Shown: positions 12,452 through 48,989, counted from the first letter of the stretch. The stretch is 48,989 nucleotides of DNA from an uncultured bacterium (GCA_937903605.1 CALCZC010000013.1:1-48989); one strand, 5' to 3'. Made by a program: numbers and translations. Notes: generated by a model from the letters alone, not told the origin.

Positions 12452-12691
12452 ATGCTTAACAATATTAATTTTATTGACGATGATGCCAATTACGACGAAA
12501 ATGACGCCGTTTGGCAAGAAGAAGAAAAAGATGAATTAGATGAATTTGGTTTTAAGACTGAAGACGAGGAAAAAGAGGAAGAAACAAAAGCAGAAGAAGG
12601 TGATGATGATGGTGATGAAGATGAGGAAGATGAAGAGGAAGAAGAAGAGGAAGAAGAAGTTGAAGGATTTGGTCTGGAAAAAGATGTTTAA
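12452..12691 (+). CDS. Small hyperacidic protein
   Basis: 79-aa ORF, more than half D/E, followed by a terminator. Confidence 0.6.
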   Translation: MLNNINFIDDDANYDENDAVWQEEEKDELDEFGFKTEDEEKEEETKAEEGDDDGDEDEEDEEEEEEEEEVEGFGLEKDV

Positions 12692-12696
12692 AGTTT

Positions 12697-12731
12697 TCCC
12701 GCCCCGACGTGAAGTTGGGGCGGGACTTTTT
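12697..12731 (+). terminator. Rho-independent terminator
   Basis: TCCCGCCCCGAC-gtgaa-GTTGGGGCGGGA followed by CTTTTT. Confidence 0.8.
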
Positions 12732-12789
12732 ATAATATGTTCTAAATGCGGTTGAAATAAAAACCAGGGCTAAATTGTATTACCAATAT

Positions 12790-13350
12790 ATGGTCATAGA
12801 TCTCAATTTAAGCGACGAACAATTGGCGGTGGCGGTTCGCGAAGTAGACAAAGAATTATATGGTGAATTAATAAGGCGCTATTCGGTCAAAATAGGGCAT
12901 TATTTGCGTAAATTTATTCGAGACAATGATGAGCTTGAAGATGTCTTACAACTGGTTTTTATCAAGGCCTATCGTAATCTTTTTGATTTTAATTCAAAAT
13001 ATAAATTTTCTCCTTGGTTGTATCGGATAGCCCACAATGAAGCCTTAAATTTTTTGAAAAAATATAAAAGAGAAAAAGTTTCTTTAGATGAAACGGAGTG
13101 GGAAATAGTCGATGAAAAAATGAACCTTAATGATAAGATGGATGTAAAATTTTTGAAAGAAGATATTGAAAAAGGTTTGGGTAAGATGAAAGATAAATAT
13201 CGAGAAGTTTTGATCCTTTATTTTTTTGAACAAAAGACTTACGAAGAAATAGGAGAAATTATGCGTTTGTCACGTAATACAGTCGGGGTTTTATTAATGC
13301 GGGCAAAAGAAATTTTAAAACAAATTCTAAAAGAAGAAAAATATGTTTAA
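12790..13350 (+). CDS. ECF RNA polymerase sigma factor (SigW/RpoE-like)
   Basis: EDVLQLVFIKAY, FSPWLYRIAHN and YREVLILYFFEQKTYEEIGEIM (regions 2 and 4). Start uncertain (12775 or 12790). Confidence 0.9.
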   Translation: MVIDLNLSDEQLAVAVREVDKELYGELIRRYSVKIGHYLRKFIRDNDELEDVLQLVFIKAYRNLFDFNSKYKFSPWLYRIAHNEALNFLKKYKREKVSLDETEWEIVDEKMNLNDKMDVKFLKEDIEKGLGKMKDKYREVLILYFFEQKTYEEIGEIMRLSRNTVGVLLMRAKEILKQILKEEKYV

Positions 13351-14194
13351 AAATAATAAAATCGAAGAAAAAGTGATGGCTGAAATCAAAAGTGGTAAAG
13401 TAAAATTACGTTCCCGCTATGTTTTTTTAGCTGAAAAGCTTGGTATTGGCAGTGCTTTCATTTTTAGCGTATTTTTGGCTGTTTTATTTTTTACTTTAGT
13501 TTTATTTTACTTGCAAGCATCCGACAATTTAGGGTATTTGAGTTTTGGGAGCCGTGGAATGTTCGCTTTTTTGGAAACCTTCCCTTATTTATTGGTAGCC
13601 ACATTGATAATTTGTGTTTTTATAGCCGGATTTATTTTGAAAAAAAGCGGAGTTTTATATCAGAAGCCGTTTGGGCGTTTGGCTCTTAGTCTTTTAGGTT
13701 TTATTGTTTTTGTCGGAGTAATTTTAACCTTTACCTCCTTGGGGGAAAATATCGAAAAAAGATCTTATAATCGCCGTGCTCCAAGCAGAGTTTTTCACCC
13801 TCTATTACATCAGAGTTTTGGTGAACGTCAAAGAGGTATCGCTGGCAGAATTGTAGAAATTGGAGACAATTTTATAAACATAGAAACTCCGATGGGTGTG
13901 AAAAAGATTGATTTTTCTTCTTTACAGGTAAGCAGCACCACTCCCGCCTTTGAAACGGGAATGTTTATTATGGCCGTTGGCAAAAATAAAGGAGAACTTT
14001 TTTCAGCTGTTGATATAAAAGTAGTAAATGAAAATGAAATGCCGATGATACGTCGAGGAATAGACGACCGCTTTGGATCTTTTGAGGGTAGAAAAATTCC
14101 TTTGCCGGGTGAAGAAAAAGTAAGGTGTTTTGAAGGGTGTGTATTTGATAAAAACAACGCCAGTTCTTGTGAAAAAAATTGTCTAATAAAATAA
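13343..14194 (+). CDS. Membrane protein coupled to the ECF sigma (putative anti-sigma; DUF5666-like periplasmic domain)
   Basis: Overlaps the sigma stop; 3 TM helices; GIAGRIVEIGDNFINIET beta-domain pattern. Confidence 0.6.
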   Translation: MFKNNKIEEKVMAEIKSGKVKLRSRYVFLAEKLGIGSAFIFSVFLAVLFFTLVLFYLQASDNLGYLSFGSRGMFAFLETFPYLLVATLIICVFIAGFILKKSGVLYQKPFGRLALSLLGFIVFVGVILTFTSLGENIEKRSYNRRAPSRVFHPLLHQSFGERQRGIAGRIVEIGDNFINIETPMGVKKIDFSSLQVSSTTPAFETGMFIMAVGKNKGELFSAVDIKVVNENEMPMIRRGIDDRFGSFEGRKIPLPGEEKVRCFEGCVFDKNNASSCEKNCLIK

Positions 14195-14198
14195 ATAT

Positions 14199-15959
14199 AT
14201 GAGAAAAATATTTGGTTATTTTTTGGCGCACAAAATTATAAGTTCCATGGTTTTGATTGTTTTGATTGGCGGAGGTTATTGGTCATATCAAAAATGGTTT
14301 ACTCCGGAAGAAGCCGTGCGTTATCTTACCGCTAAAGCGGAAAAAGGGGTTTTATCCTCTTCTATTTCCGGCACCGGACAAGTTGAAGCCGAGAGTCAGG
14401 TTGATATAAAAGCTGAAGCTTCCGGAAAGATTGTTGGCGTTTCAACCAAAGTCGGACAAGAGGTAAAAACGGGGCAGTTGTTAATTACGCTTGATCCAAC
14501 TGATGCATTGAAATCCGTGCGTGATGCGGAAACAAATTTGCGTTCAGCACAAATATCTTATGAAAAGTTAGTTGCGCCGGCCACAGAGTTGGAAATTTTA
14601 CAAGCTGAAAACTCCCTACTTTCGAGCAAAGAATCTTTGCGTCAAGCACAAGATAATTTGGACAAAGCTTATGAAGATGGGTTTAATACAGTTTCTAACG
14701 CGTTTTTAGAGTTGCCGGGATTAATTTCAGATATGGAGGATATGATTTTTGACAATGATTTTGAAAAGTATCAGCCAAATATTGACTGGTATTTAAATCA
14801 AGGTCTTTCCTATGACAGTGATAATCAAAACAAGATAAGAAAATATCGTCAGGATGTCTTGGATGCTTATGATATAGCCAGAATAAATTATAATAACAAT
14901 TTTGAGGATTATAAAAACACATCGCGCGATTCCAGTACTTCTACAATCTCTAATTTGATTTGGCAAACCTATGAAACAGTTAAGTCTTTGGCGGATACGG
15001 TAAAAAATATGAATAATTATGTTGATTATATTCAAGACGCCATGTCACAAGCCGAGTATAAGGTAAATATACCGGCTTTGATGAGTACTCATCAAAGTTC
15101 TTTGGATACTTATACGGGAAAAACGAACAGTCACTTGTCTTCTTTATTACAAATAAAAAATAGTATTGAAAGCACTAAAACAAGTATTGAGAGTACATCG
15201 CGTGCTATTGCCGAAAAAGAGCTTTCATTCATCAATCTTAAAGCCGGACCAGATGCTTTGGATATAGAAACTCAAAAATTATCTTTGCAACAGAAAGAAA
15301 ATTTACTTTTGGAAGCTAGAGAAAAATTGGCTGATTATTATATCCGCGCCCCGTTTGACGGAGTTATTGCTTCGTTTAGTCTCAAGAAAGGGGATACGGT
15401 TTCTTCCGGAGGCGCTATTGCTACCATTATTAACAAACAATATACAGCCACTATTTCACTTAACGAAGTGGATGCGGCCAAAGTTAAAATTGGACAAAAA
15501 GTCATTATTACTTTTGATGCGATCGAAGATCTAACGCTTACCGGAGAAGTAGCGGAGATAGATACTTTGGGCACCGTGAGTCAAGGAGTGGTAAGTTATA
15601 ATGTAAAAATAATTTTTGATATTCAAGATGAAAGATTTAAATCAGGAATGACAGTTACAACTAATATTATTTTATCTTCTAAAACAGATGTTTTGATGGT
15701 TAAGACATCGGCCATTAAAACACAAGGTAATATAAATTATGTTGAAGTTTTGATAGACGGGGTGCCTCAGCAAAAGACAATAACAATTGGTGATAGTAAC
15801 GATACAATGACGGAAGTTTTGAGCGGGATTGACGAGGGCGATGAAGTAGTAACGCAAAAAATAACTGCTAGTTCCGTAACCGCTTCACAGACAAATGCAA
15901 CAACCGATAATAGGAGTTTTGGGGGAGACCAGGGAGTAATGAGAATGATAAGAGACTAA
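14199..15959 (+). CDS. Efflux periplasmic adaptor subunit (MacA/HlyD-like)
   Basis: N-terminal TM, SGTGQVEA, long coiled coil, IRAPFDGVI and ISLNEVDAAKVKIGQKV. Confidence 0.9.
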   Translation: MRKIFGYFLAHKIISSMVLIVLIGGGYWSYQKWFTPEEAVRYLTAKAEKGVLSSSISGTGQVEAESQVDIKAEASGKIVGVSTKVGQEVKTGQLLITLDPTDALKSVRDAETNLRSAQISYEKLVAPATELEILQAENSLLSSKESLRQAQDNLDKAYEDGFNTVSNAFLELPGLISDMEDMIFDNDFEKYQPNIDWYLNQGLSYDSDNQNKIRKYRQDVLDAYDIARINYNNNFEDYKNTSRDSSTSTISNLIWQTYETVKSLADTVKNMNNYVDYIQDAMSQAEYKVNIPALMSTHQSSLDTYTGKTNSHLSSLLQIKNSIESTKTSIESTSRAIAEKELSFINLKAGPDALDIETQKLSLQQKENLLLEAREKLADYYIRAPFDGVIASFSLKKGDTVSSGGAIATIINKQYTATISLNEVDAAKVKIGQKVIITFDAIEDLTLTGEVAEIDTLGTVSQGVVSYNVKIIFDIQDERFKSGMTVTTNIILSSKTDVLMVKTSAIKTQGNINYVEVLIDGVPQQKTITIGDSNDTMTEVLSGIDEGDEVVTQKITASSVTASQTNATTDNRSFGGDQGVMRMIRD

Positions 15960-35555: not shown

Positions 35556-36368
35556 TCAAAGAGGGCTTTTGATATTTTTGATACTGGGATTAGTCACGTG
35601 AGTATATATTTGCGTAGTGCGGATATTGGCGTGGCCCAAAAGCTCTTGTACATAACGTACATCAACGCCGTTTTCTAGTAGGTGAGTGGCGAAACTATGG
35701 CGTAAACTATGAAAGCTAGCGGGTTTTTTGATCCCTGATTTTTTCAATGCTTCTTCAAATATGGCTTGCGCGGTTCTGACGGTGAGTTTGCCACCACGAT
35801 TACTTTCAAAAAGATAATCCTCGCCGTTTCGTTCACCTGTCAAAAAATATAAATCATTTTTGATATTTTCTGGAATAACGGTTATCCTGTCTTTTTTGCC
35901 TTTGCCTTGCCTTACTTTCAAAATTAGTTCATCAAGTAAAACGTCTTTTATTTTCAAATCAACAACTTCACTCACTCGCAATCCCGCTCCATAAGCTAGA
36001 GATAATAGTAACAAATGTTTTTTATTGGTAACTTGAGATAAGATATTTTTGATTTCTTCTTTACTCAAAACTTCCGGCAAAGAATTGTTTCTTTTGGCAA
36101 ATTTTAGATCAACTCTTTGGTTATTTTTCAAAACATCATGATAGAAAAATTTTATAGCGTGTAAATACAAATTAATTGTTTGAGGAGAAAAATGCTTGTC
36201 TTGTTTTGAAAGTAAAAATTGTCTGATTTTGTCTATACTCAAAACCTCAAAATCAACTCTCAAAAAGATAAAATAATCTCTTAAACAGCCAAGATAGGAG
36301 TCAATGGTCCGAGGGCTATAATTACGTAGTCGTAACTCAATCCGAGTTTTGTCTAAAAATTCTTGCAT
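35556..36368 (-). CDS. IntI-like tyrosine recombinase (short form, no I2 insertion)
   Basis: LRLRNYSPRTIDSY N-domain; catalytic GLR, GKGKKDR, HSLRH, LLGH and TQIY; C-terminal SPL as in IntI; divergent from a cassette array. Confidence 0.92.
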   Translation of the reverse strand: MQEFLDKTRIELRLRNYSPRTIDSYLGCLRDYFIFLRVDFEVLSIDKIRQFLLSKQDKHFSPQTINLYLHAIKFFYHDVLKNNQRVDLKFAKRNNSLPEVLSKEEIKNILSQVTNKKHLLLLSLAYGAGLRVSEVVDLKIKDVLLDELILKVRQGKGKKDRITVIPENIKNDLYFLTGERNGEDYLFESNRGGKLTVRTAQAIFEEALKKSGIKKPASFHSLRHSFATHLLENGVDVRYVQELLGHANIRTTQIYTHVTNPSIKNIKSPL

Positions 36369-36473
36369 ATTTTGATAAAAAAGAGTAAAATTTGTATATA
36401 TTTATATACAACAACATTATACATAAAATTCGTAAAATATACAAATTTAGGTATATTTCACGTAGTTTTATTC

Positions 36474-36493
36474 GTATAACAACCAGTTGCGCA
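36474..36493 (+). other. Candidate attI site
   Basis: GTATAAC-AACCA-G|TT, an inverted AAC/GTT core with a 5-bp spacer, 105 bp upstream of the integrase start. The first mini-cassette begins at the G|TT. Confidence 0.6.
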
Positions 36494-36639
36494 AAATTTC
36501 GCTTCGCTCATTTTGCGCAATGTGCGGCGCATAACTGCGCCAGCTGTGCTTCGCGAAGCTTCGCACAACTGTCGCATATCCAAAATGGCGATCTGATGAC
36601 AAAGTCATCATCTCACCACTTCGGATTATGCGCCGCACA
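36487..36639 (+). mobile_element. 153-bp gene-less mini-cassette type A, copy 1
   Basis: TTGCGCAAAAT...GCCGCACA, identical to copies 2-4; inserted at G|TT. Confidence 0.9.
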
Positions 36640-36826
36640 TTATACGCAATTCAAAAAATATTTTTCTTTTAATAAGGAATTTTGACAGGCTTTTTTAAAG
36701 GGGAATAAATTTGTTTTTTTATTTATTAGAAAGGGGTATAAGGTGTTTTCTCCGCTTCGCTACGAAAACGATTTATTTATAAGGGGAAAACGAATACAAT
36801 ACAAATACCTATCACGAAAATAATTT

Positions 36827-38629
36827 ATGCCAAAAATTAAGGATATGCCTAAGATTGACCGCCCAAGAGAACGATTTTTGCAAAAAGGGGCTGATGCACT
36901 TTCAAAGAGTGATCTTTTGGCAATTCTTTTGGGTAGCGGAATTAAGGGGAAAAATGTTAGACAGCTTTCGGAAAATATTATTAAAAAATTCGGTAAAAAC
37001 TTTTTAAATATCACCGTTGATGATCTTTTAGAAATTTCGGGAATTGGACAAGCTAAAGCATTACAAATTGCTTCCGCTGTTTCGTTAGTAAAAAGATTTT
37101 ACGACGAGGACAAAACAAACGAAATTGTTATAAAAAACTCTCAAGATGTTTTATCCCTTACTTATGATTTAAGAGACAAGAAAAAAGAACATTTAGTTTG
37201 TCTTTATTTGAACGCACGAAATGTTTTGTTGAAAAAAGAAATTGTTAGTGTAGGTCTTTTAGACAAAGCATTGCTACATCCGAGAGAAATTTTTTACCCT
37301 GCAACCGAATTAAACGCCGCCAGTGTAATTTTGGTTCACAATCACCCTTCGGGCGATTCTTCACCTAGCGAAAAAGACAACCAAATTATTGAAAAAATTG
37401 TGCAAGCCGGCGAGATCATGGGAATACCTGTTATTGATTTTATTATTATTTCGACAAATGGAAATTATAGTTTTTTTGAAAAGTTAAAAGGTCAAAACAC
37501 AAATTTTGATTATGTAGCGGATGGTGTACAGGGAACGCTTTTTAATCTGTTGGAAATTGAAAAATCACCTTACGAGGTAACGATAAAAAAGATCGAAAAG
37601 CCATATTTTCATTTTTCAAAGACAAAAAGCAATTCATTCCAGCTACAAAATAGAAGATATTTAGGAAACAAGCATAAATTACTTGGTTTTATTGAAGATA
37701 TTGTTTCTGAAAAATGCAATGGAATAAAATCATTTTGCGATATTTTTGCCGGCACAGGCGTTGTTGGCGAAAGATTTAATAAGCCCACAATCAAAGTTAT
37801 TTCAAATGACATACTTTTTAGTAACTACGCTTGTCTAAAAGCTTTTCTCGGCATAAACACAAACATAGATAACATTACGGAAAAAATAAAAATTTTAAAT
37901 AACCTACAAGCTACTGAAGATAATTATTTCTCAAAGCATTTTGGAAATACTTATTTTTCACTAGAAAACGCTAAAAAAATTGGGGCTATCAGAGAAGAAA
38001 TAGAAAATATTGCAGAATCCGAAGAAGAAAAAAACGCTCTCATTTGCTCGCTATTATATGCAGTTGACAAAGTTGCAAACACCGTCGGTCACTATGATGC
38101 CTTTCGTAAAGATTTAGACATGATTCAGCCAATAATGCTGTTAACGCCAGATATTGATTACTCAAACAATGCAAATAACGAAGTTTACAAGGAAGATGCA
38201 AATATTTTGATTAGAAAAATTTCTTGTGATGTATTGTATATCGACCCGCCATATAACTCACGTCAATATTCAGATGCTTATCACTTGCTTGAAAATCTTG
38301 CGGAATGGAAAAAACCAGAAGTCGAAGGAGTGGCAAAAAAAATGGATCGTTCACACATCAAAAGTTCCTACTGCCTCAAAAATGCGACGCAGGCATTTGA
38401 AGATTTAATCAGAAATGCGGATTGTAAACATATTTTATTATCATATAATAATACTGGGGATTCAAAAGACGGACGATCAAATGCCAGAATTTCTGACAAT
38501 GACATTTTAAGAATATTAAAAAACAAAGGAGAAGTTGAAATTTTTGAAAGAGATTACAAAGCCTTTACCGCGGGCAAGAGTAATGGCGACGGAAATGCGG
38601 AAAGAATTTTTTATTGCAAAGTAAACTAA
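36827..38629 (+). CDS. RadC (JAB) - D12-class N6-adenine DNA methyltransferase fusion
   Basis: PRERF...LLAILLGSG, HPREIF and VHNHPSGDSSPSEKD (RadC), then RRYLGNK, DIFAGTG and YIDPPYN (MTase), in one frame. Confidence 0.9.
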   Translation: MPKIKDMPKIDRPRERFLQKGADALSKSDLLAILLGSGIKGKNVRQLSENIIKKFGKNFLNITVDDLLEISGIGQAKALQIASAVSLVKRFYDEDKTNEIVIKNSQDVLSLTYDLRDKKKEHLVCLYLNARNVLLKKEIVSVGLLDKALLHPREIFYPATELNAASVILVHNHPSGDSSPSEKDNQIIEKIVQAGEIMGIPVIDFIIISTNGNYSFFEKLKGQNTNFDYVADGVQGTLFNLLEIEKSPYEVTIKKIEKPYFHFSKTKSNSFQLQNRRYLGNKHKLLGFIEDIVSEKCNGIKSFCDIFAGTGVVGERFNKPTIKVISNDILFSNYACLKAFLGINTNIDNITEKIKILNNLQATEDNYFSKHFGNTYFSLENAKKIGAIREEIENIAESEEEKNALICSLLYAVDKVANTVGHYDAFRKDLDMIQPIMLLTPDIDYSNNANNEVYKEDANILIRKISCDVLYIDPPYNSRQYSDAYHLLENLAEWKKPEVEGVAKKMDRSHIKSSYCLKNATQAFEDLIRNADCKHILLSYNNTGDSKDGRSNARISDNDILRILKNKGEVEIFERDYKAFTAGKSNGDGNAERIFYCKVN

Positions 38630-38634
38630 AATCT

Positions 38635-40470
38635 ATGAAAAAACCTTGGTCAATAACAACAACTACCAGAAGTCCTTACCGACTAAAAGAGCAACTGCGA
38701 GTATTAGTTGATAATTTTTCCGGCTTTGAGTGGACAAGAGAAAATCAGATAAATTTTCAGATTTCTTTGATTCAACACCGCTTATATGGACACAACGAAG
38801 ATACCGGTTTTTCTCAACAATTTTTAAACGGCTTGTCGGAAACACACAAAGAAATATTCACTGATTTTTCGCATATCTTAACTTTTGAAGAAGCTAAAGA
38901 GATATTTGATAGCAAAAATTACGAGGATCCCTCAATGAGAGGTCGACAATCCTTTAACCCATTTAAAAAATTCGGATTTGTGAGATTGAGAAAGAAAATT
39001 TTAGAAATAACACCATTCGGTGAGAATTTTTTGTCTAATGAGCATGATCTTTCAGATATATTTTTTAGTAGTTTTATAAAATGGCAATTACCTAATCCCG
39101 ATAATTCTGGCTACAAATTGGCTGACGGCTACAATATAAAACCATTTATTGGAATACTCCACCTTATACGCAAGGTGAATGAAAAATCTTTGGCATTAGG
39201 AGAAAAAAATAAAGGAATTAGTAAGGCAGAATTTTCATTATTTGGCCCCTCGCTAGTAAATTTTAATGACGTTGATTCATACGCTGAAAAAATTATTGGC
39301 TTACGACAAAAATTGAATGGAAAAAATAAGCAAGAACAAAAAGCTATTTTTGAGCAGTATAAAAAAACTTTTGCAAAAGAATTTCTCCAGTCCGACAATC
39401 CAAAAGGAGTAAATAAACTCCTTAAAAACTTGAAAGATTACGGCGATAATGCCATTAGGTACTTCCGATTAACTAACTATATCTATATTCGTGGTGGTGG
39501 TTTTTATATTGATTTAGAGCCGAGAAGGTCTGTTGAAATTAACGCCTTGCTAGATTTTGACAATGCACAATCCAAAACATTCGCAACTAAAGAGGCGTAT
39601 TTTGATTACATTTCCGACATTGCGCAACCGCATCTCCCTTGGGAAACAAAAGAAAAGTACATTGAGATTGTTGCCAAACTTATTGAAGAAGTAAAGAATT
39701 ATGAAACTGAATTAGAAAAAGAGCCCGTTGTAATACAGGACTATTCAAAATTGGAGGAAACTGAACTAAAAACATACATTGCCGAGCTTAGAAAATACCG
39801 ACGAGAATTACAAGATCAAGAAGCTCACAGTAAATCCCAAGACACAGAAGCAATAAAATCCTATATCCAAGAATTGGAAAATATTTTTGATGCCGATGAC
39901 AAACCTATACTGCTTGAAAAACTTTCATCGTTAGGCTTGCACGCACTAAACGATGCTCTAAAAATACAACCAAATTATCCTGTCGGAGACGACAACGAGC
40001 CAACATTTACAGCACCAGCCAACACGCCCGATATAGAATGCTTTTATAAAAGCTTCAATGCTATTTGCGAAGTAACAATGCTCACGGGACGAGATCAATG
40101 GTATAATGAGGGTCAGCCAGTTATGAGACATTTAAGGGATTTTGAAAGTAAATATAATGACAAAAACTCTTATTGCTTGTTTATTGCGCCAAAAATTCAC
40201 AGGGATACAGTCAATACTTTTTGGACTGCTATAAAATATGAATATGAAGGCAAAAAACAAAGGATAATTCCCCTGTCAATCGGCAATTTTGTTTCTCTTC
40301 TGAATATCTTGGTTAAAATAAAATCAGAAAATAAATTTTTGAAGCACAGCGAAATTTCCAGACTGTATGATGAAATAATCAATTCATCAAATTCTTTTAA
40401 CGATTCCAACGAATGGCTCAAAAATATTCCTGCGACTATTTCGTCATGGCAAGAAAGCCTAACATTCTAA
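38635..40470 (+). CDS. AlwI/Nt.BstNBI-family type IIS restriction endonuclease
   Basis: WSITTTTRSPYR, DPSMRGRQS and PTFTAPANTPDIEC...EVTMLTGRDQWYNEGQPVMRH; flanked by two MTases. Confidence 0.85.
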   Translation: MKKPWSITTTTRSPYRLKEQLRVLVDNFSGFEWTRENQINFQISLIQHRLYGHNEDTGFSQQFLNGLSETHKEIFTDFSHILTFEEAKEIFDSKNYEDPSMRGRQSFNPFKKFGFVRLRKKILEITPFGENFLSNEHDLSDIFFSSFIKWQLPNPDNSGYKLADGYNIKPFIGILHLIRKVNEKSLALGEKNKGISKAEFSLFGPSLVNFNDVDSYAEKIIGLRQKLNGKNKQEQKAIFEQYKKTFAKEFLQSDNPKGVNKLLKNLKDYGDNAIRYFRLTNYIYIRGGGFYIDLEPRRSVEINALLDFDNAQSKTFATKEAYFDYISDIAQPHLPWETKEKYIEIVAKLIEEVKNYETELEKEPVVIQDYSKLEETELKTYIAELRKYRRELQDQEAHSKSQDTEAIKSYIQELENIFDADDKPILLEKLSSLGLHALNDALKIQPNYPVGDDNEPTFTAPANTPDIECFYKSFNAICEVTMLTGRDQWYNEGQPVMRHLRDFESKYNDKNSYCLFIAPKIHRDTVNTFWTAIKYEYEGKKQRIIPLSIGNFVSLLNILVKIKSENKFLKHSEISRLYDEIINSSNSFNDSNEWLKNIPATISSWQESLTF

Positions 40471-40473
40471 CTT

Positions 40474-41250
40474 ATGGGTATGAAAACAAACATTATTTAT
40501 AACGACGATTGCGTAGATATACTCAAATTAAAAATTGATAAGGAATCAATTGATCTTATTTTTGCCGATCCGCCATATAACTTATCTGGCAACGGACTAT
40601 CTTGGAAAGGCAATAAAACTGGTGGTGATTGGTACATGGTAAATGAGGCATGGGACAGAATGTCCGCACCAGAATACCTGCAATTTACCAGAAAATGGAT
40701 TGGTGGTGCCTATCGTGCATTGAAAGACGGCGGATCAATTTATATTTCCTGCACTTATCACAATATCGCAGAAGTCATGATTGTTTTGAAGCAACTGGAT
40801 TTCAAAATCAATAATATCATCACTTGGCAAAAAACAAATGCGATGCCGAATATGACAAGACGAGTTTTTACACACTCTACTGAATTTGTAGTTTGGGCGG
40901 TAAAAGGCAAAAAATGGATTTTTAACTACGAAGAATTAAAGAAACTAAACCCCGACAAACAGAAAGACGGATCTCTAAAACAAATGCGAGACGTTTGGCA
41001 ATTGCCTCTCGTTCAGGGCAAAGAAAGAATCAGAGGAAATGATAACAGGGCTATTCACCCCACCCAAAAGCCAGAAGAAATGTTGCGTCGTATTATTCTC
41101 GCATCTTCGAACAAGGGCGATATTGTTCTTGATCCATTTTTAGGTAGTGGGACGACAACTTTTGTAGCAAAAAAACTTGGGAGGAAATGGATAGGAATAG
41201 AAAAGGACAAAAAATATTTTACGGTTGCGGAAAAAAGAATGAATTATTAG
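40474..41250 (+). CDS. beta-class N4/N6 DNA methyltransferase
   Basis: [14 protein letters not shown] and [11 protein letters not shown]. Confidence 0.93.
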
Positions 41251-41254
41251 AAAT

Positions 41255-43279
41255 ATGAACAATAATGAATCAAAAACAAACGGCTGGCTACATAATAGGT
41301 TTTTCCTATTTTTAACTTTTACTATTGCTTTGCTTGGTGCAAATTATTTTTTTACAGGAAACCTTTTTCCTAGCACTAATACAAAAGAGCTTTGGTTTTA
41401 CTCTGGAATTTTCATGGTTCTTTTTTCGATTCTTTTTATTGAGCCGTATTATACATCTCCTAAAAATGTTATAACCAACGCCATCCCGCTATTGCTTGTT
41501 TTTCTTTCGATAGAAAATACCTTTGAAAACAAAATCTTATGGTGGATTGCGGTTGCAATAATTTTAGCTCTACTTTTCTTTTCAATTATCGCAATTGCGT
41601 TAGAGGATAAAAATAAAAGTCCAAATCATTTGAAAAATAAATTTTCAGAATTGTTAAAAAAACTTGTAGTAATTGTCGGCAAGGGAAAAATTATCTATTC
41701 CGCAGTTTTTCTTTTATTCTTATTCGTTAACATTACATCAAAACCGGCAGAAGATTTTAATCAGATATTTGATAGTTATTTTGTGGTTTTACTAATCTTT
41801 TGGGGCTTAATTCTTTCTATTGATCCGAAAGAAATAAATAATACTTTTTCTTTAAAGAAAAAAATACTTAATGATGATGCACTAGGCGAAATTTTTGGAG
41901 TTCAATCTAGAAAAATATTTCTGGTAAAACTTTTTGAGGATAGAAAAGAAATAAAAAAGTTTGACATAGTAAGATTTAGATATTCAATGCAGGATTCAAA
42001 TGATTTTTTAATATCAGGCATTGTTTTTGACACATATTTACTTAATCAAGAGAAGTGGGCAAAGGTTTTGCAATTAGGGAAAATAGCAAAAAACAGTTCT
42101 AGTGCCGAAAAAAATGTTGTTTATAAAGTATCAAATAGCGAAGAAATCGACACACTGGAAAAAGAATTACGCACAGATCGCTTTGTTGGTATTGTGATTG
42201 AAGGCTCAAACATAGGAAAAATTAAATTTGAGTATTCAAAAAAACAAGAGGATTTACAAGAGGGAGATTTAATCGAACTAAAAACAAATGATAAAAGATT
42301 ATTTTATCAAGTAATTAACGGACTAACTGAAAAGGAATCTTTGGAACATCGAAATGAAACAAGTTTTATTAAAGGCGAGGCAATTCAACTTGGAGAATGG
42401 AAAAACGATGATCTCTCCTTTCAAAAATATGGCTGGGTACCTTCCATAAATACGCCTATTTTTAAAGCTGACACGTCTGATATTGAAGTGAAGAGTTTTA
42501 ATTATCCCGAATACAAACTTGGAATAATTCCCAATACTTCATTGCCTTCTGTAATTAACTTAGCTCAAGCAGTTAGTCATCATATGGCTCTATTAGGCGT
42601 TACTGGATCAGGTAAATCCTTTCTCGCTCGCGAAATTATAAAAGAATTAACTAATGATACAAAAATAATTTGTGTTGATTTTACAAGTGAATGGAAAAAG
42701 GAGGTTGAAAAAACAGCAATTACTCCAACAATATTAAACAAGGACAATATAGACACTTTTTTAAGCGGTACGGATAAAATTGGGATTGTTGAATTGCCCG
42801 CAATGAGTAATACAGTTGAAATTATAAGTGCCACAGAAAAACTTTTTGAAGCAATATTTAATTTTGCAAAAAAGAAATACGACGAACAAAATCCAACAAA
42901 AATATCTCTCGTACTTGAAGAAGCTCACACAATAGTTCCTGAAGAAAAATTTTTAGGTGTTAATAATTGGGATAGTAAGGCTATAGTAAATAAGATGGGG
43001 CAGATTGCCTTACAGGGCAGAAAATACGGAATAGGCTTACTTGTCATCGCACAAAGAACTGCAAATGTTTCTAAAACAGTTTTAACGCAATGTAATACAG
43101 TTATTTGTTTTCAAGCATTTGACGAGACTAGTTTTAATTTCTTAGGAAATTATGTCGGCAAAGATCTCGTTCTGACACTTCCAAATTTAAAACAATACCA
43201 TGCAATTGTTACTGGCAAAGCTATCAAATCAAATGTTCCAATGATTATTGATTTAGAAAGAAAAAAGGAGAAAGAATAA
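41255..43279 (+). CDS. Membrane-anchored HerA/FtsK-like (DUF87) ATPase
   Basis: About 6 N-terminal TM helices, HAS-barrel-like middle, HMALLGVTGSGKS, LVLEEAH and GRKYGIGLLVIAQR. Confidence 0.85.
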   Translation: MNNNESKTNGWLHNRFFLFLTFTIALLGANYFFTGNLFPSTNTKELWFYSGIFMVLFSILFIEPYYTSPKNVITNAIPLLLVFLSIENTFENKILWWIAVAIILALLFFSIIAIALEDKNKSPNHLKNKFSELLKKLVVIVGKGKIIYSAVFLLFLFVNITSKPAEDFNQIFDSYFVVLLIFWGLILSIDPKEINNTFSLKKKILNDDALGEIFGVQSRKIFLVKLFEDRKEIKKFDIVRFRYSMQDSNDFLISGIVFDTYLLNQEKWAKVLQLGKIAKNSSSAEKNVVYKVSNSEEIDTLEKELRTDRFVGIVIEGSNIGKIKFEYSKKQEDLQEGDLIELKTNDKRLFYQVINGLTEKESLEHRNETSFIKGEAIQLGEWKNDDLSFQKYGWVPSINTPIFKADTSDIEVKSFNYPEYKLGIIPNTSLPSVINLAQAVSHHMALLGVTGSGKSFLAREIIKELTNDTKIICVDFTSEWKKEVEKTAITPTILNKDNIDTFLSGTDKIGIVELPAMSNTVEIISATEKLFEAIFNFAKKKYDEQNPTKISLVLEEAHTIVPEEKFLGVNNWDSKAIVNKMGQIALQGRKYGIGLLVIAQRTANVSKTVLTQCNTVICFQAFDETSFNFLGNYVGKDLVLTLPNLKQYHAIVTGKAIKSNVPMIIDLERKKEKE

Positions 43280-43541
43280 ATGGGGTAAGCAAATAAAAGG
43301 CAAAAATTCCCTCCCCTTAAACCCCTTCCTTTTTGCCTTTTATTTGAAGAGAATAAGGAGTTTTGGATTTTGGGCATTCACCCCTAACCCCTCTGCCCAA
43401 AATCCAAAACAAAAAAACAAATTTATGATTATTGAATAAAAAGCCTGTCAAAATGAAATTGAATGAAAAATATTTTTTGAACTCGCTCCTTTCAATCGCG
43501 CCCCGCTGCGCTCTCGCCTCCGCTACGCTACGGCTCGGGGC

Positions 43542-43640
43542 GTATAACACAGCGTATGCGGTTCGGGGCTCGGCTCGCCCCTCACCCATATTTTTGCTCC
43601 CGTTGGTCGCAAAAACATCGCATACGCTGGAACGTTGCGC
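43542..43640 (+). other. attC site 1
   Basis: R'' GTATAAC, L'' CAGCGTATGCG, L' CGCATACGCTG, then GAAC-G|TT. CGTATAAC complements the cassette start G+TTATACG (36640). Confidence 0.85.
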
Positions 43641-43787
43641 AAAATTTCGCTTCGCTCATTTTGCGCAATGTGCGGCGCATAACTGCGCCAGCTGTGCTTC
43701 GCGAAGCTTCGCACAACTGTCGCATATCCAAAATGGCGATCTGATGACAAAGTCATCATCTCACCACTTCGGATTATGCGCCGCACA
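43635..43787 (+). mobile_element. 153-bp mini-cassette type A, copy 2
   Basis: Identical to 36487-36639. Confidence 0.9.
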
Positions 43788-43811
43788 TTATATGAAATAC
43801 ATCACAAAATT

Positions 43812-48665: not shown

Positions 48666-48694
48666 ATAAAACACTCCGATAAGGAGTGTTTTAT
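48666..48694. terminator. Bidirectional terminator
   Basis: ATAAAACACTCC-gataa-GGAGTGTTTTAT. Confidence 0.8.
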
Positions 48695-48989
48695 AGTGCC
48701 CGCCCCAAAGGGGCCCCTTCGGGGGTGTGGGAATCTGCTTCGCCTCTCGTCGTCTTCCGACTCCTCGGGCTAGCCACCAGCTCGCGGTTTTACTCGCCCG
48801 CAAGCTCGTAAAACATCGCTCCGCTGTTCTCATCCTGACGCGAGCAAACAGTTTTGCTCGCTCCCCAGACAAAATAACACAGACCAAAAAAGGTCTGTGT
48901 TATTTTGTCTGGGGCGGGAATTCCTCGTCGTCTCGCCGACAAATATCGGCTCGACTCCTTGCCCTGGGCAGCGTCGGATTCACACTGTG
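48695..48989 (-). repeat. Tandem GC-rich palindromic elements related to the tRNA-fMet-associated element
   Basis: The reverse complement of 48744-48778 matches 20578-20612 at 30/35. A perfect 23-bp inverted repeat lies at 48863-48885/48892-48914. Confidence 0.75.

Follow-up and report, generated by a model that had tools for sequence, protein, structure and literature searches.

Positions 36640–43634 of contig CALCZC010000013.1, from an uncultured bacterium, are probably one gene cassette of the integron type; the array that contains it is integron-like and belongs to a Patescibacteria (candidate phyla radiation, CPR) genome. The whole contig of 48,989 bp was analysed and is called the window here; its source genome is ultra-small (1.13 Mb in 32 contigs), and the relatives of this genome are Patescibacteria/CPR metagenome bins. 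The segment appears to be built in three layers: a conserved 5' module, a cargo of four genes, and a conserved 3' module followed by an attC-type palindrome (Table 1). A four-gene defence operon packaged as one cassette had been proposed in the original prediction, which named a RadC-methylase, an AlwI-family endonuclease, a beta-class methylase and a membrane-anchored HerA protein with gaps of at most 5 bp; the profile matches agree with these assignments, and the gaps are 5, 3 and 4 nt.

The limits of the cassette were derived from its paired ends. The segment begins with TTATACG (36640–36646), the R'' box CGTATAAC of its own attC site stands at 43541–43548, and the palindrome then ends in GGAACG|TT, with the G at 43634; both the coordinates and the complementarity of these ends, as originally proposed, were borne out. 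In four of the four complete cassettes the first seven nucleotides are complementary to the R'' of the same cassette, and these heptamers differ among cassettes (TTATACG/CGTATAA, TTATATG/CATATAA, TTATATA/TATATAA, TTAAGTG/CACTTAA); given that four positions vary in each cassette, the probability of this outcome by chance is about (1/256)^4. Since such complementarity is a signature of integron cassettes, the crossovers were placed at 36639|36640 and 43634|43635. The upstream crossover reads A|TT here, where a gene-less mini-cassette precedes it, and G|TT in three relatives (X21, L088 and L090, see below).

The attC site is predicted to fold as an imperfect palindrome, in which L'' AGCGTATGCGG pairs with L' CGCATACGCT (z-score of the fold of the junction region, −7.9 to −9.6). 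It reaches 90.9 bits with a covariance model, R1, among whose training members the site itself is included. Three colinear inverted repeats of 92–100% complementarity tie 36650–36724 to 43407–43481, over about 75 nt: 36650–36673 with 43458–43481 (24 nt, 92%), 36679–36695 with 43438–43454 (17 nt, 100%) and 36705–36724 with 43407–43426 (20 nt, 95%). When the ends were joined in silico, the predicted fold was a single hairpin, about 320 nt long, whose core is the attC (−75.6 kcal/mol for the top strand, −80.4 for the bottom strand). A circular form of the cassette would carry this folded site, with the core R''-L''...L'-R' and the crossover G|TT; its predicted junction is ...GGAACG|TTATACGCAATTC, i.e., ...CATCGCATACGCTGGAACG|TTATACGCAATTCAAAAAAT, and the predicted empty site would be mini-cassette A joined to TTATATGAAATAC.

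No internal attC was found in 36640–43634. Model R1, which was built from ten attC sites (of the window and of the loci L011 and L012) and run with filters off, gave only chance-level matches there, of at most 9.7 bits with E values of at least 1.2, and it recovers the array sites J1, J2 and J4 at 53–91 bits; a hand-written scan for R''-L''/L'-R' stems had proved too noisy in AT-rich DNA and was replaced by the model. Copies of the mini-cassette, degenerate or intact, are absent from the block, and the intergenic gaps of 3–5 nt leave no room for an internal att site. Degenerate att sites splitting the block, which the original prediction had named as the finding that would speak against it, were thus not detected with R1, and the proposal of one cassette is upheld by the paired ends, the lack of internal sites and the retention of the ends in relatives.

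The same ends surround other cargo. Homologues of the 5' module (36637–36782) and of the 3' module (43347–43595) flank an unrelated cargo of about 2 kb in L011, L012 and L019, where the pairs of modules adjoin attC sites, in arrays beside orthologous recombinases (57–64% identical). The 5' module has further homologues in L009, L088, L090 and L127; copies of the 3' module are near-identical in L127 (9804–9905), 97% identical in L019 and 89% in L088. In metagenome contigs the end modules are 10–15 times deeper than the cargo. As judged from these comparisons, the modules are standard cassette ends in these communities.

The three restriction genes are conserved as a unit and occur in four other places. 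In X21, an activated-sludge contig of 11,040 nt, 36640–41241 is matched at 93%; 2,703 other letters replace the HerA region, and a match to 43350–43636 at about 95% follows. The left flank of X21, ...TTCGTATAACAACGAG|TTATACG, is an attI-like site joined straight to the cassette, the 153-nt unit being absent, and on the right the likeness stops at 43636, where past the GTT of the attC a different cassette start, ATGCGAAATAAAT..., is found. In L088/L089, 36660–41246 (4.6 kb) is matched at 87% nucleotide identity and the 3' module is kept; this copy lies between a response-regulator gene and leuS, behind G|TTATACG, with the attC reduced to its L'-R' half, and its fourth gene slot (12677–14960) holds an HTH_17-DEAD/ResIII helicase and an open reading frame (ORF) of 101 amino acids (aa). 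The match to L090/L091 (81–83%) starts exactly at 36640, behind glyA; the inverted repeat is preserved only as a remnant, and the fourth slot (12611–13879) holds a DUF4917 gene. The L088 and L090 copies stand in ordinary chromosomal surroundings, away from any visible array, and have half an attC or none. With L093–L095 the three genes alone are shared, not the cassette ends. A search for the same operon in other genomes, as had been suggested, therefore yielded relatives with att-type ends, in which the likeness ends at the crossover (X21) or starts at G|TTATAC behind unrelated genes (L088, L090).

The restriction proteins are 90–96% identical to those of L088, whereas BipA is 54% and LeuRS 31.5% identical, and the nuclease was present in 9 of 401 genomes of the phylum, each from a different genus, and was absent from all relatives within the genus; this contrast and the scattered distribution show that the unit has spread horizontally, cassette ends included. 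It had been stated beforehand that orthologues with the same flanks and no att sites would contradict a cassette. Orthologues without a full att site do exist, but they have kept the cassette end modules and the G|TT junctions, and for this reason they are regarded as fossil cassettes and not as a refutation. A direct repeat, GTTATA(C/T)GCCCATTTTTCTTTT, was noticed around the fossil cassette of L088 (8017–8040 and 15131–15155), which is longer than a G|TT crossover gives; possibly a second, decayed cassette starts at its downstream copy, in which case this would be a small array without an integrase.

Long terminal inverted repeats, the recurrence of the same shell around different cargo and the copies outside arrays would also be compatible with a non-autonomous, transposon-like shell, marked by the repeats of about 75 nt, which carries the operon and came to lie next to the recombinase by chance; for its movement the integron-like sites would be irrelevant. 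This explanation is very improbable: neither a transposase, within the block or close to it, nor a target-site duplication was seen, the ends coincide with G|TT crossovers, and R' covaries with its own R''. Moreover, every 3' module in an array has an attC after it, and every 5' module there follows the L'-G of a preceding attC or an attI-like site.

A second alternative is a compound origin from at least two cassettes. The three-gene module and the HerA gene, for instance, could once have been separate and have lost the att site between them, so that the present 7-kb unit would be a product of decay and not a load captured whole. The fourth gene is indeed replaced in L088, L090 and X21, homologues of the HerA gene travel among several types of restriction operons, and the large cassette of a sister genome (G412, see below) contains an internal gap of 243 nt with a terminator-like hairpin. 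The gap between methylase and HerA genes is, however, just 4 nt, with no att remnant even when filters were off, and the break in the likeness to L088 runs from 4 nt upstream of the methylase stop codon to 16 nt downstream of that of HerA, which means that the fourth gene was swapped gene for gene within constant ends. All variants keep both modules, from which it follows that the unit which moved already had a slot for a fourth gene. A fused origin of the present cassette appears unlikely on these grounds, and a single cassette with an exchangeable fourth gene is preferred.

The first gene of the cargo encodes a fusion of RadC with a D12/Dam-class methylase (PF02086, 128 bits; PF04002, 124 bits; PF20582, 81 bits; PADLOC model MTase_II, 390 bits), which is kept in L088, L090 and L093. 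The match of the second protein to PF09491 spans profile positions 3–441 of 441, and its best PADLOC model is REase_II PDLC03393, a full-length cluster of "type II nicking endonuclease" (417 bits). Its length was given as 611 aa by the gene callers, and the ORF list contains an alternative TTG start at 38614. Among structures in the PDB only a distant match to N.BspD6I (128 bits) was obtained, and the recognition site can therefore not be read from the comparison. The third protein has its best NCBIfam match, under the cutoff, with NF050803 CcrM (257 bits). Methylases of the CcrM/HinfI type act on GANTC, and an asymmetric recognition site requires two methylases; here, one D12-class and one N6_N4-class methylase gene are present. 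The relationship to CcrM/HinfI is a hint that the site is of the GANTC type, for example GAGTC, and not the GGATC-like motif which had been anticipated. Observed/expected counts in the genome were 0.90 for GAGTC, 1.14 for GGATC and 0.68 for GATC; no signal of avoidance of GAGTC or GGATC was seen in these word counts, and the expectation of a GGATC-like motif is not supported. The cargo is presumably a type IIS-like restriction-modification system, in which the two methylases would protect an asymmetric site. Its core would consist of the AlwI-family nuclease and the two methylases, one of them fused to RadC, with the fourth slot taken by the membrane-anchored ATPase here and by other putative defence genes in relatives; the fourth-slot genes of L088 and L090 look like defence-type genes swapped one for one behind the restriction core. 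Once established, such a system could stabilise the cassette by addiction.

The protein of the fourth slot possesses about five hydrophobic helices in its N-terminal part (residues 16–190) and a C-terminal HerA/DUF87 ATPase with the Walker A motif GVTGSGKS. HerA models match the ATPase only (NF042944, 71.5 bits against a cutoff of 850), and in a profile search the cassette yielded no gene for a SIR2 or DUF4297 partner; the gene is thus not a member of the SIR2-HerA or DUF4297-HerA systems. Homologues with the membrane anchor are 60–82% identical across phyla (CPR, Bacteroidota and others). They are found inside a type I system, between hsdM and hsdS (L097), after a type III-like mod/res pair (L096), after a DpnI-like nuclease and a methylase (L130) and after a DEAD/ResIII helicase (L129). 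The gene is best described, from its domains and contexts, as an apparent uncharacterised accessory linked to restriction systems, and the family is a candidate for a stand-alone defence accessory without a described mechanism. In two low-coverage assemblies of the same population, from other samples, gene calls are split: the HerA gene in L100 (3090–5114; 484 + 158 aa) and the RadC-methylase fusion in L101 (3642–5444; 220 + 359 aa). These could be assembly errors at 4–5x depth or real inactivating variants.

Table 1. Features of the cassette and its surroundings; positions refer to the window.
Feature	Position	Strand	Basis or remarks
Cassette, 6,995 bp	36640–43634	+	From TT of upstream crossover to G of own attC
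5' end module	36640–36790	+	R' box TTATACG 36640–36646; inverted-repeat arm 36650–36724; promoter-like element; hairpin at about 36740–36770
RadC (UPF0758_N + JAB) fused to D12/Dam-class N6-adenine DNA methylase, 600 aa	36827–38629	+	Profile matches
AlwI-family type IIS-like restriction (or nicking) endonuclease, 611 aa	38635–40470	+	PF09491, 281 bits
Beta-class N6_N4 DNA methylase, CcrM/HinfI-like, 258 aa	40474–41250	+	PF01555, 222 bits
Membrane-anchored HerA/DUF87 ATPase, 674 aa	41255–43279	+	PF01935; gene slot differs among relatives
3' end module	43290–43481	+	Two perfect 17-bp hairpins 43290–43346 and 43360–43410; inverted-repeat arm 43407–43481
GC-rich insert, 59 nt, 3' arm only	43482–43540	+	Sequence reading; L011 homologue without, L012 homologue with it
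attC of cassette	43541–43636	+	R'' CGTATAAC, L'' AGCGTATGCGG, two inner hairpins, L' CGCATACGCT, GGAAC-G|TT
Tyrosine recombinase, 270 aa, XerA/IntI-like, presumed cassette recombinase	35556–36368	−	PF00589, 146 bits, and PF13495
attI-side minimal site, CGTATAAC-AACCA-G|TT	36473–36488	+	Sequence reading; crossover between 36486 and 36487
Mini-cassette A, copy 1, 153 nt, gene-less, folded	36487–36639	+	Exactly at crossover, 5' of the 7-kb cassette
Mini-cassette A, copy 2	43635–43787	+	Between cassettes 1 and 2 (cassette 2 start TTATATG at 43788)

The array lies downstream of the recombinase on the plus strand and reads away from the divergently oriented recombinase gene. It is composed of four identical, gene-less, folded units of 153 nt and a diverged fifth one, alternating with gene-bearing segments, each of which terminates in an attC-like imperfect palindrome. 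The four identical copies of mini-cassette A are the only ones in the genome, and their predicted fold is strong (z-score −7.9 to −9.6). A conserved element of 160 nt was considered as part of a giant attC of the cassette and rejected in favour of a separate unit, because the X21 cassette is without it and because in X5 the units A and B are adjacent with no cargo between them. X5 is a digester contig of 649 nt (depth 17.9), from a relative about 96% identical, which joins 36639 straight to 46427: the fifth unit comes directly after the first one (153 nt), cassettes 1–4 are absent, and the breaks fall at the predicted crossovers. On the attI side, the minimal site was aligned by R1 as R'' plus R' with the centre deleted; its score of 7.4 bits is not significant alone.

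The recombinase passes the XerA-type model NF040815 (225 bits, cutoff 220) and is below the cutoffs of the integron-integrase model TIGR02249 (208 against 265 bits) and of NF011946 (133 against 435 bits). The match to TIGR02249 is split into two stretches, which indicates that the IntI-specific insertion is missing; the additional domain that characterises integron integrases was thus not found in the neighbouring recombinase by profile searches. The recombinase gene is missing from five same-genus genomes, and the whole platform is therefore considered accessory. IntI acts on folded single strands. By analogy, the recombinase could integrate the folded site of the cassette at G|TT on the attI side, or remove it by recombination with a neighbouring site.

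First position next to attI had been noted originally, and a recent acquisition or highest expression had been inferred from it. The former is correct insofar as this is the first gene-bearing cassette; it is not the first unit, since the 153-nt unit (36487–36639) stands between. The conclusion on recency or expression is not supported, in view of a promoter-like element of the cassette itself, the strongly folding unit in between, and the X21 variant in the same slot. The promoter-like element, TTGACA-N18-TAAATT at 36682–36711, is conserved (by pattern match only), and the cargo may be expressed from it. A 93%-identical variant in the attI-proximal slot of X21 would fit retention as well as recent capture, and it is plausible that the cassette has long been retained if cells die on losing the methylases.

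Several points weigh against an integron-type cassette that is moved as one unit. The recombinase is without the IntI-specific insertion, and its action on folded sites is presumed. X21 and this genome share the context on the attI side, and the pair may reflect common descent instead of two captures. The variation of the fourth gene among relatives shows the cargo to be of composite origin. Neither the circle junction nor the empty site specific for this cassette was seen in the assembled contigs of public runs, which drop rare forms. A contig of 7,047 nt with just the four genes (L087) was examined as an excised circle and rejected: its ends lie inside the identical flanking mini-cassettes, and it is therefore an assembly break. 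Finally, in classical integrons the recovery of cassettes correlates negatively with size, and a 4-kb cassette was never recovered (10.64898/2026.03.17.712381), so that one of 7 kb may hardly move at all.

The last point leads to an alternative which deserves some weight, although it is doubtful: the element could be a cassette in structure, captured once at the attI side and immobile today, the spacing of 7 kb being too long and loss of the methylases lethal. Besides the effect of size in classical integrons, the occurrence of this cassette family in the attI-proximal slot of X21 and the decay of att sites in copies outside arrays are in keeping with it, and toxin-antitoxin cassettes are known to constrain cassette dynamics (PMC13108822). 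On the other hand, the att site is intact, as judged from its score with R1 and the full complementarity of R' and R''; cassettes 1–4 are missing as a precise block from the close relative represented by X5; and cargo and ends together have moved between distant lineages. Present-day mobility of the 7-kb cassette appears plausible from this evidence.

Integron cassettes are treated as small units, mostly with a single gene, and search tools take about 2 kb as the upper limit; the largest known cassette was given as about 2 kb, and a clustering window of 4 kb was used (Cury et al. 2016, PMC4889954). The cassette described here is about 3.5 times as large as this maximum of classical integrons, and a default search window would miss it. 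A usual cassette consists of one promoterless ORF of about 0.5–1 kb; here, four ORFs, 6,995 bp and a promoter-like element were found. In related arrays (about a dozen cassettes) the attC spacing is 0.6–2.5 kb. A second large cassette is present in G412, a sister genome of the same family and a different genus, in first position beside a recombinase that is 76% identical. This cassette comprises 6,482 bp, from G|TTAGCC to a GGCTAAC-attC, and its genes encode an EcoRI-like methylase, a GmrSD_N-HNH protein, an AAA ATPase and an S8 protease. The 5' module is the same, the 3' module is near-identical, the terminal inverted repeat measures 23 nt, and no internal attC was found. The 7-kb cassette is exceptional but, given G412, not unique, and the original suggestion that the platform carries very large multi-gene loads holds for 6,995 bp here and for the four-gene cassette of 6.5 kb there. 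More tentatively, the Patescibacteria platform could routinely capture and exchange multi-gene defence operons of 6.5–7.6 kb, with the long end modules enlarging the folded site and lifting the size limit, and with the slot on the recombinase side acting as a hot spot for defence genes with gene-for-gene swaps; in this wide form the proposal is speculative.

Among known systems, the phage-defence integron cassettes termed BRiCs (Kieffer et al., 10.1101/2024.07.02.601719) known from mobile and from sedentary chromosomal integrons, are similar in that a defence system forms one cassette between crossover points, with a 3' attC. Outside arrays they have close homologues, which carry a pseudo-attC or none, comparable to L088 and L090. 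BRiCs differ in containing one or two genes and in belonging to IntI integrons of Proteobacteria, whereas the present cassette has four genes in 7 kb, long inverted-repeat modules, likely its own promoter, a recombinase without the IntI-specific domain and a CPR host of 1.1 Mb. With classical integrons and attC sites (PMC4889954) it shares the order R''-L''...L'-R', the crossover G|TT, a start complementary to its own R'' and a divergent recombinase. AlwI-family type IIS systems (Pfam RE_AlwI; N.BspD6I, structure 2EWF) likewise combine a PF09491 nuclease with two methylases; the differences are the low match of 128 bits, the fusion of one methylase to RadC and the absence of a small-subunit gene. 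SIR2-HerA and DUF4297-HerA have in common with the fourth protein an ATPase core of the HerA type, including the Walker A and B motifs, and a defence context, but the latter protein has no such partner, carries the membrane N-terminus of about five helices, stays far below the model cutoff and accompanies restriction systems of types I, II and III.

Defence cassettes in integrons are already known; unusual here are the size, the end modules and the host system. No published account of integrons or attC sites in Patescibacteria that matches this system was found by title and abstract. The data suggest that a CPR integron-like system can traffic whole defence operons, and standard integron searches would miss such loads. 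The cassette offers a test of site architecture versus load size for a cassette recombinase, and a defined context has been added for the uncharacterised family of membrane-anchored HerA proteins.

Some structural details of the end modules were also noted. The inner part of the 5' module (36706–36790 in the window; L127, 3780–3860; L088, 8070–8150; L009, 129–213) is kept across unrelated cargo, with 89% identity to L009. It contains the hairpin gttttc-tccgcttcgctac-gaaaac, which shows compensatory stem substitutions in G412 (gtttttgcccct...aggggcaaaaac), is bordered by ATAAGG(G)G repeats and has no match in Rfam; a role as leader, attenuator or binding site for a protein is conceivable. The two 17-bp hairpins of the 3' module, with the C-rich loops ttccctccccttaaaccccttcc and ttcacccctaacccctc, are nearly invariant at the 3' ends of cassettes across genera (window, 43290–43410; L127, 9804–9905; L019, 90–134 and 5963–6007; almost identical in G412) and could be a bidirectional terminator or a portion of the folded site. 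In an Rfam search of the window only tRNAs were found, the end modules and the mini-cassette being without a match to any curated RNA family. No more attC sites were detected over 6.7 kb past the fifth unit, and the array therefore seems to end there. After the last genes behind this fifth mini-cassette, a GC-rich, hairpin-rich, non-coding stretch of about 650 nt without an Rfam match extends from 48690–48989 of the window into L085 (17436–18090), and a tRNA gene on the minus strand is next to it (L085, 18092–18173).

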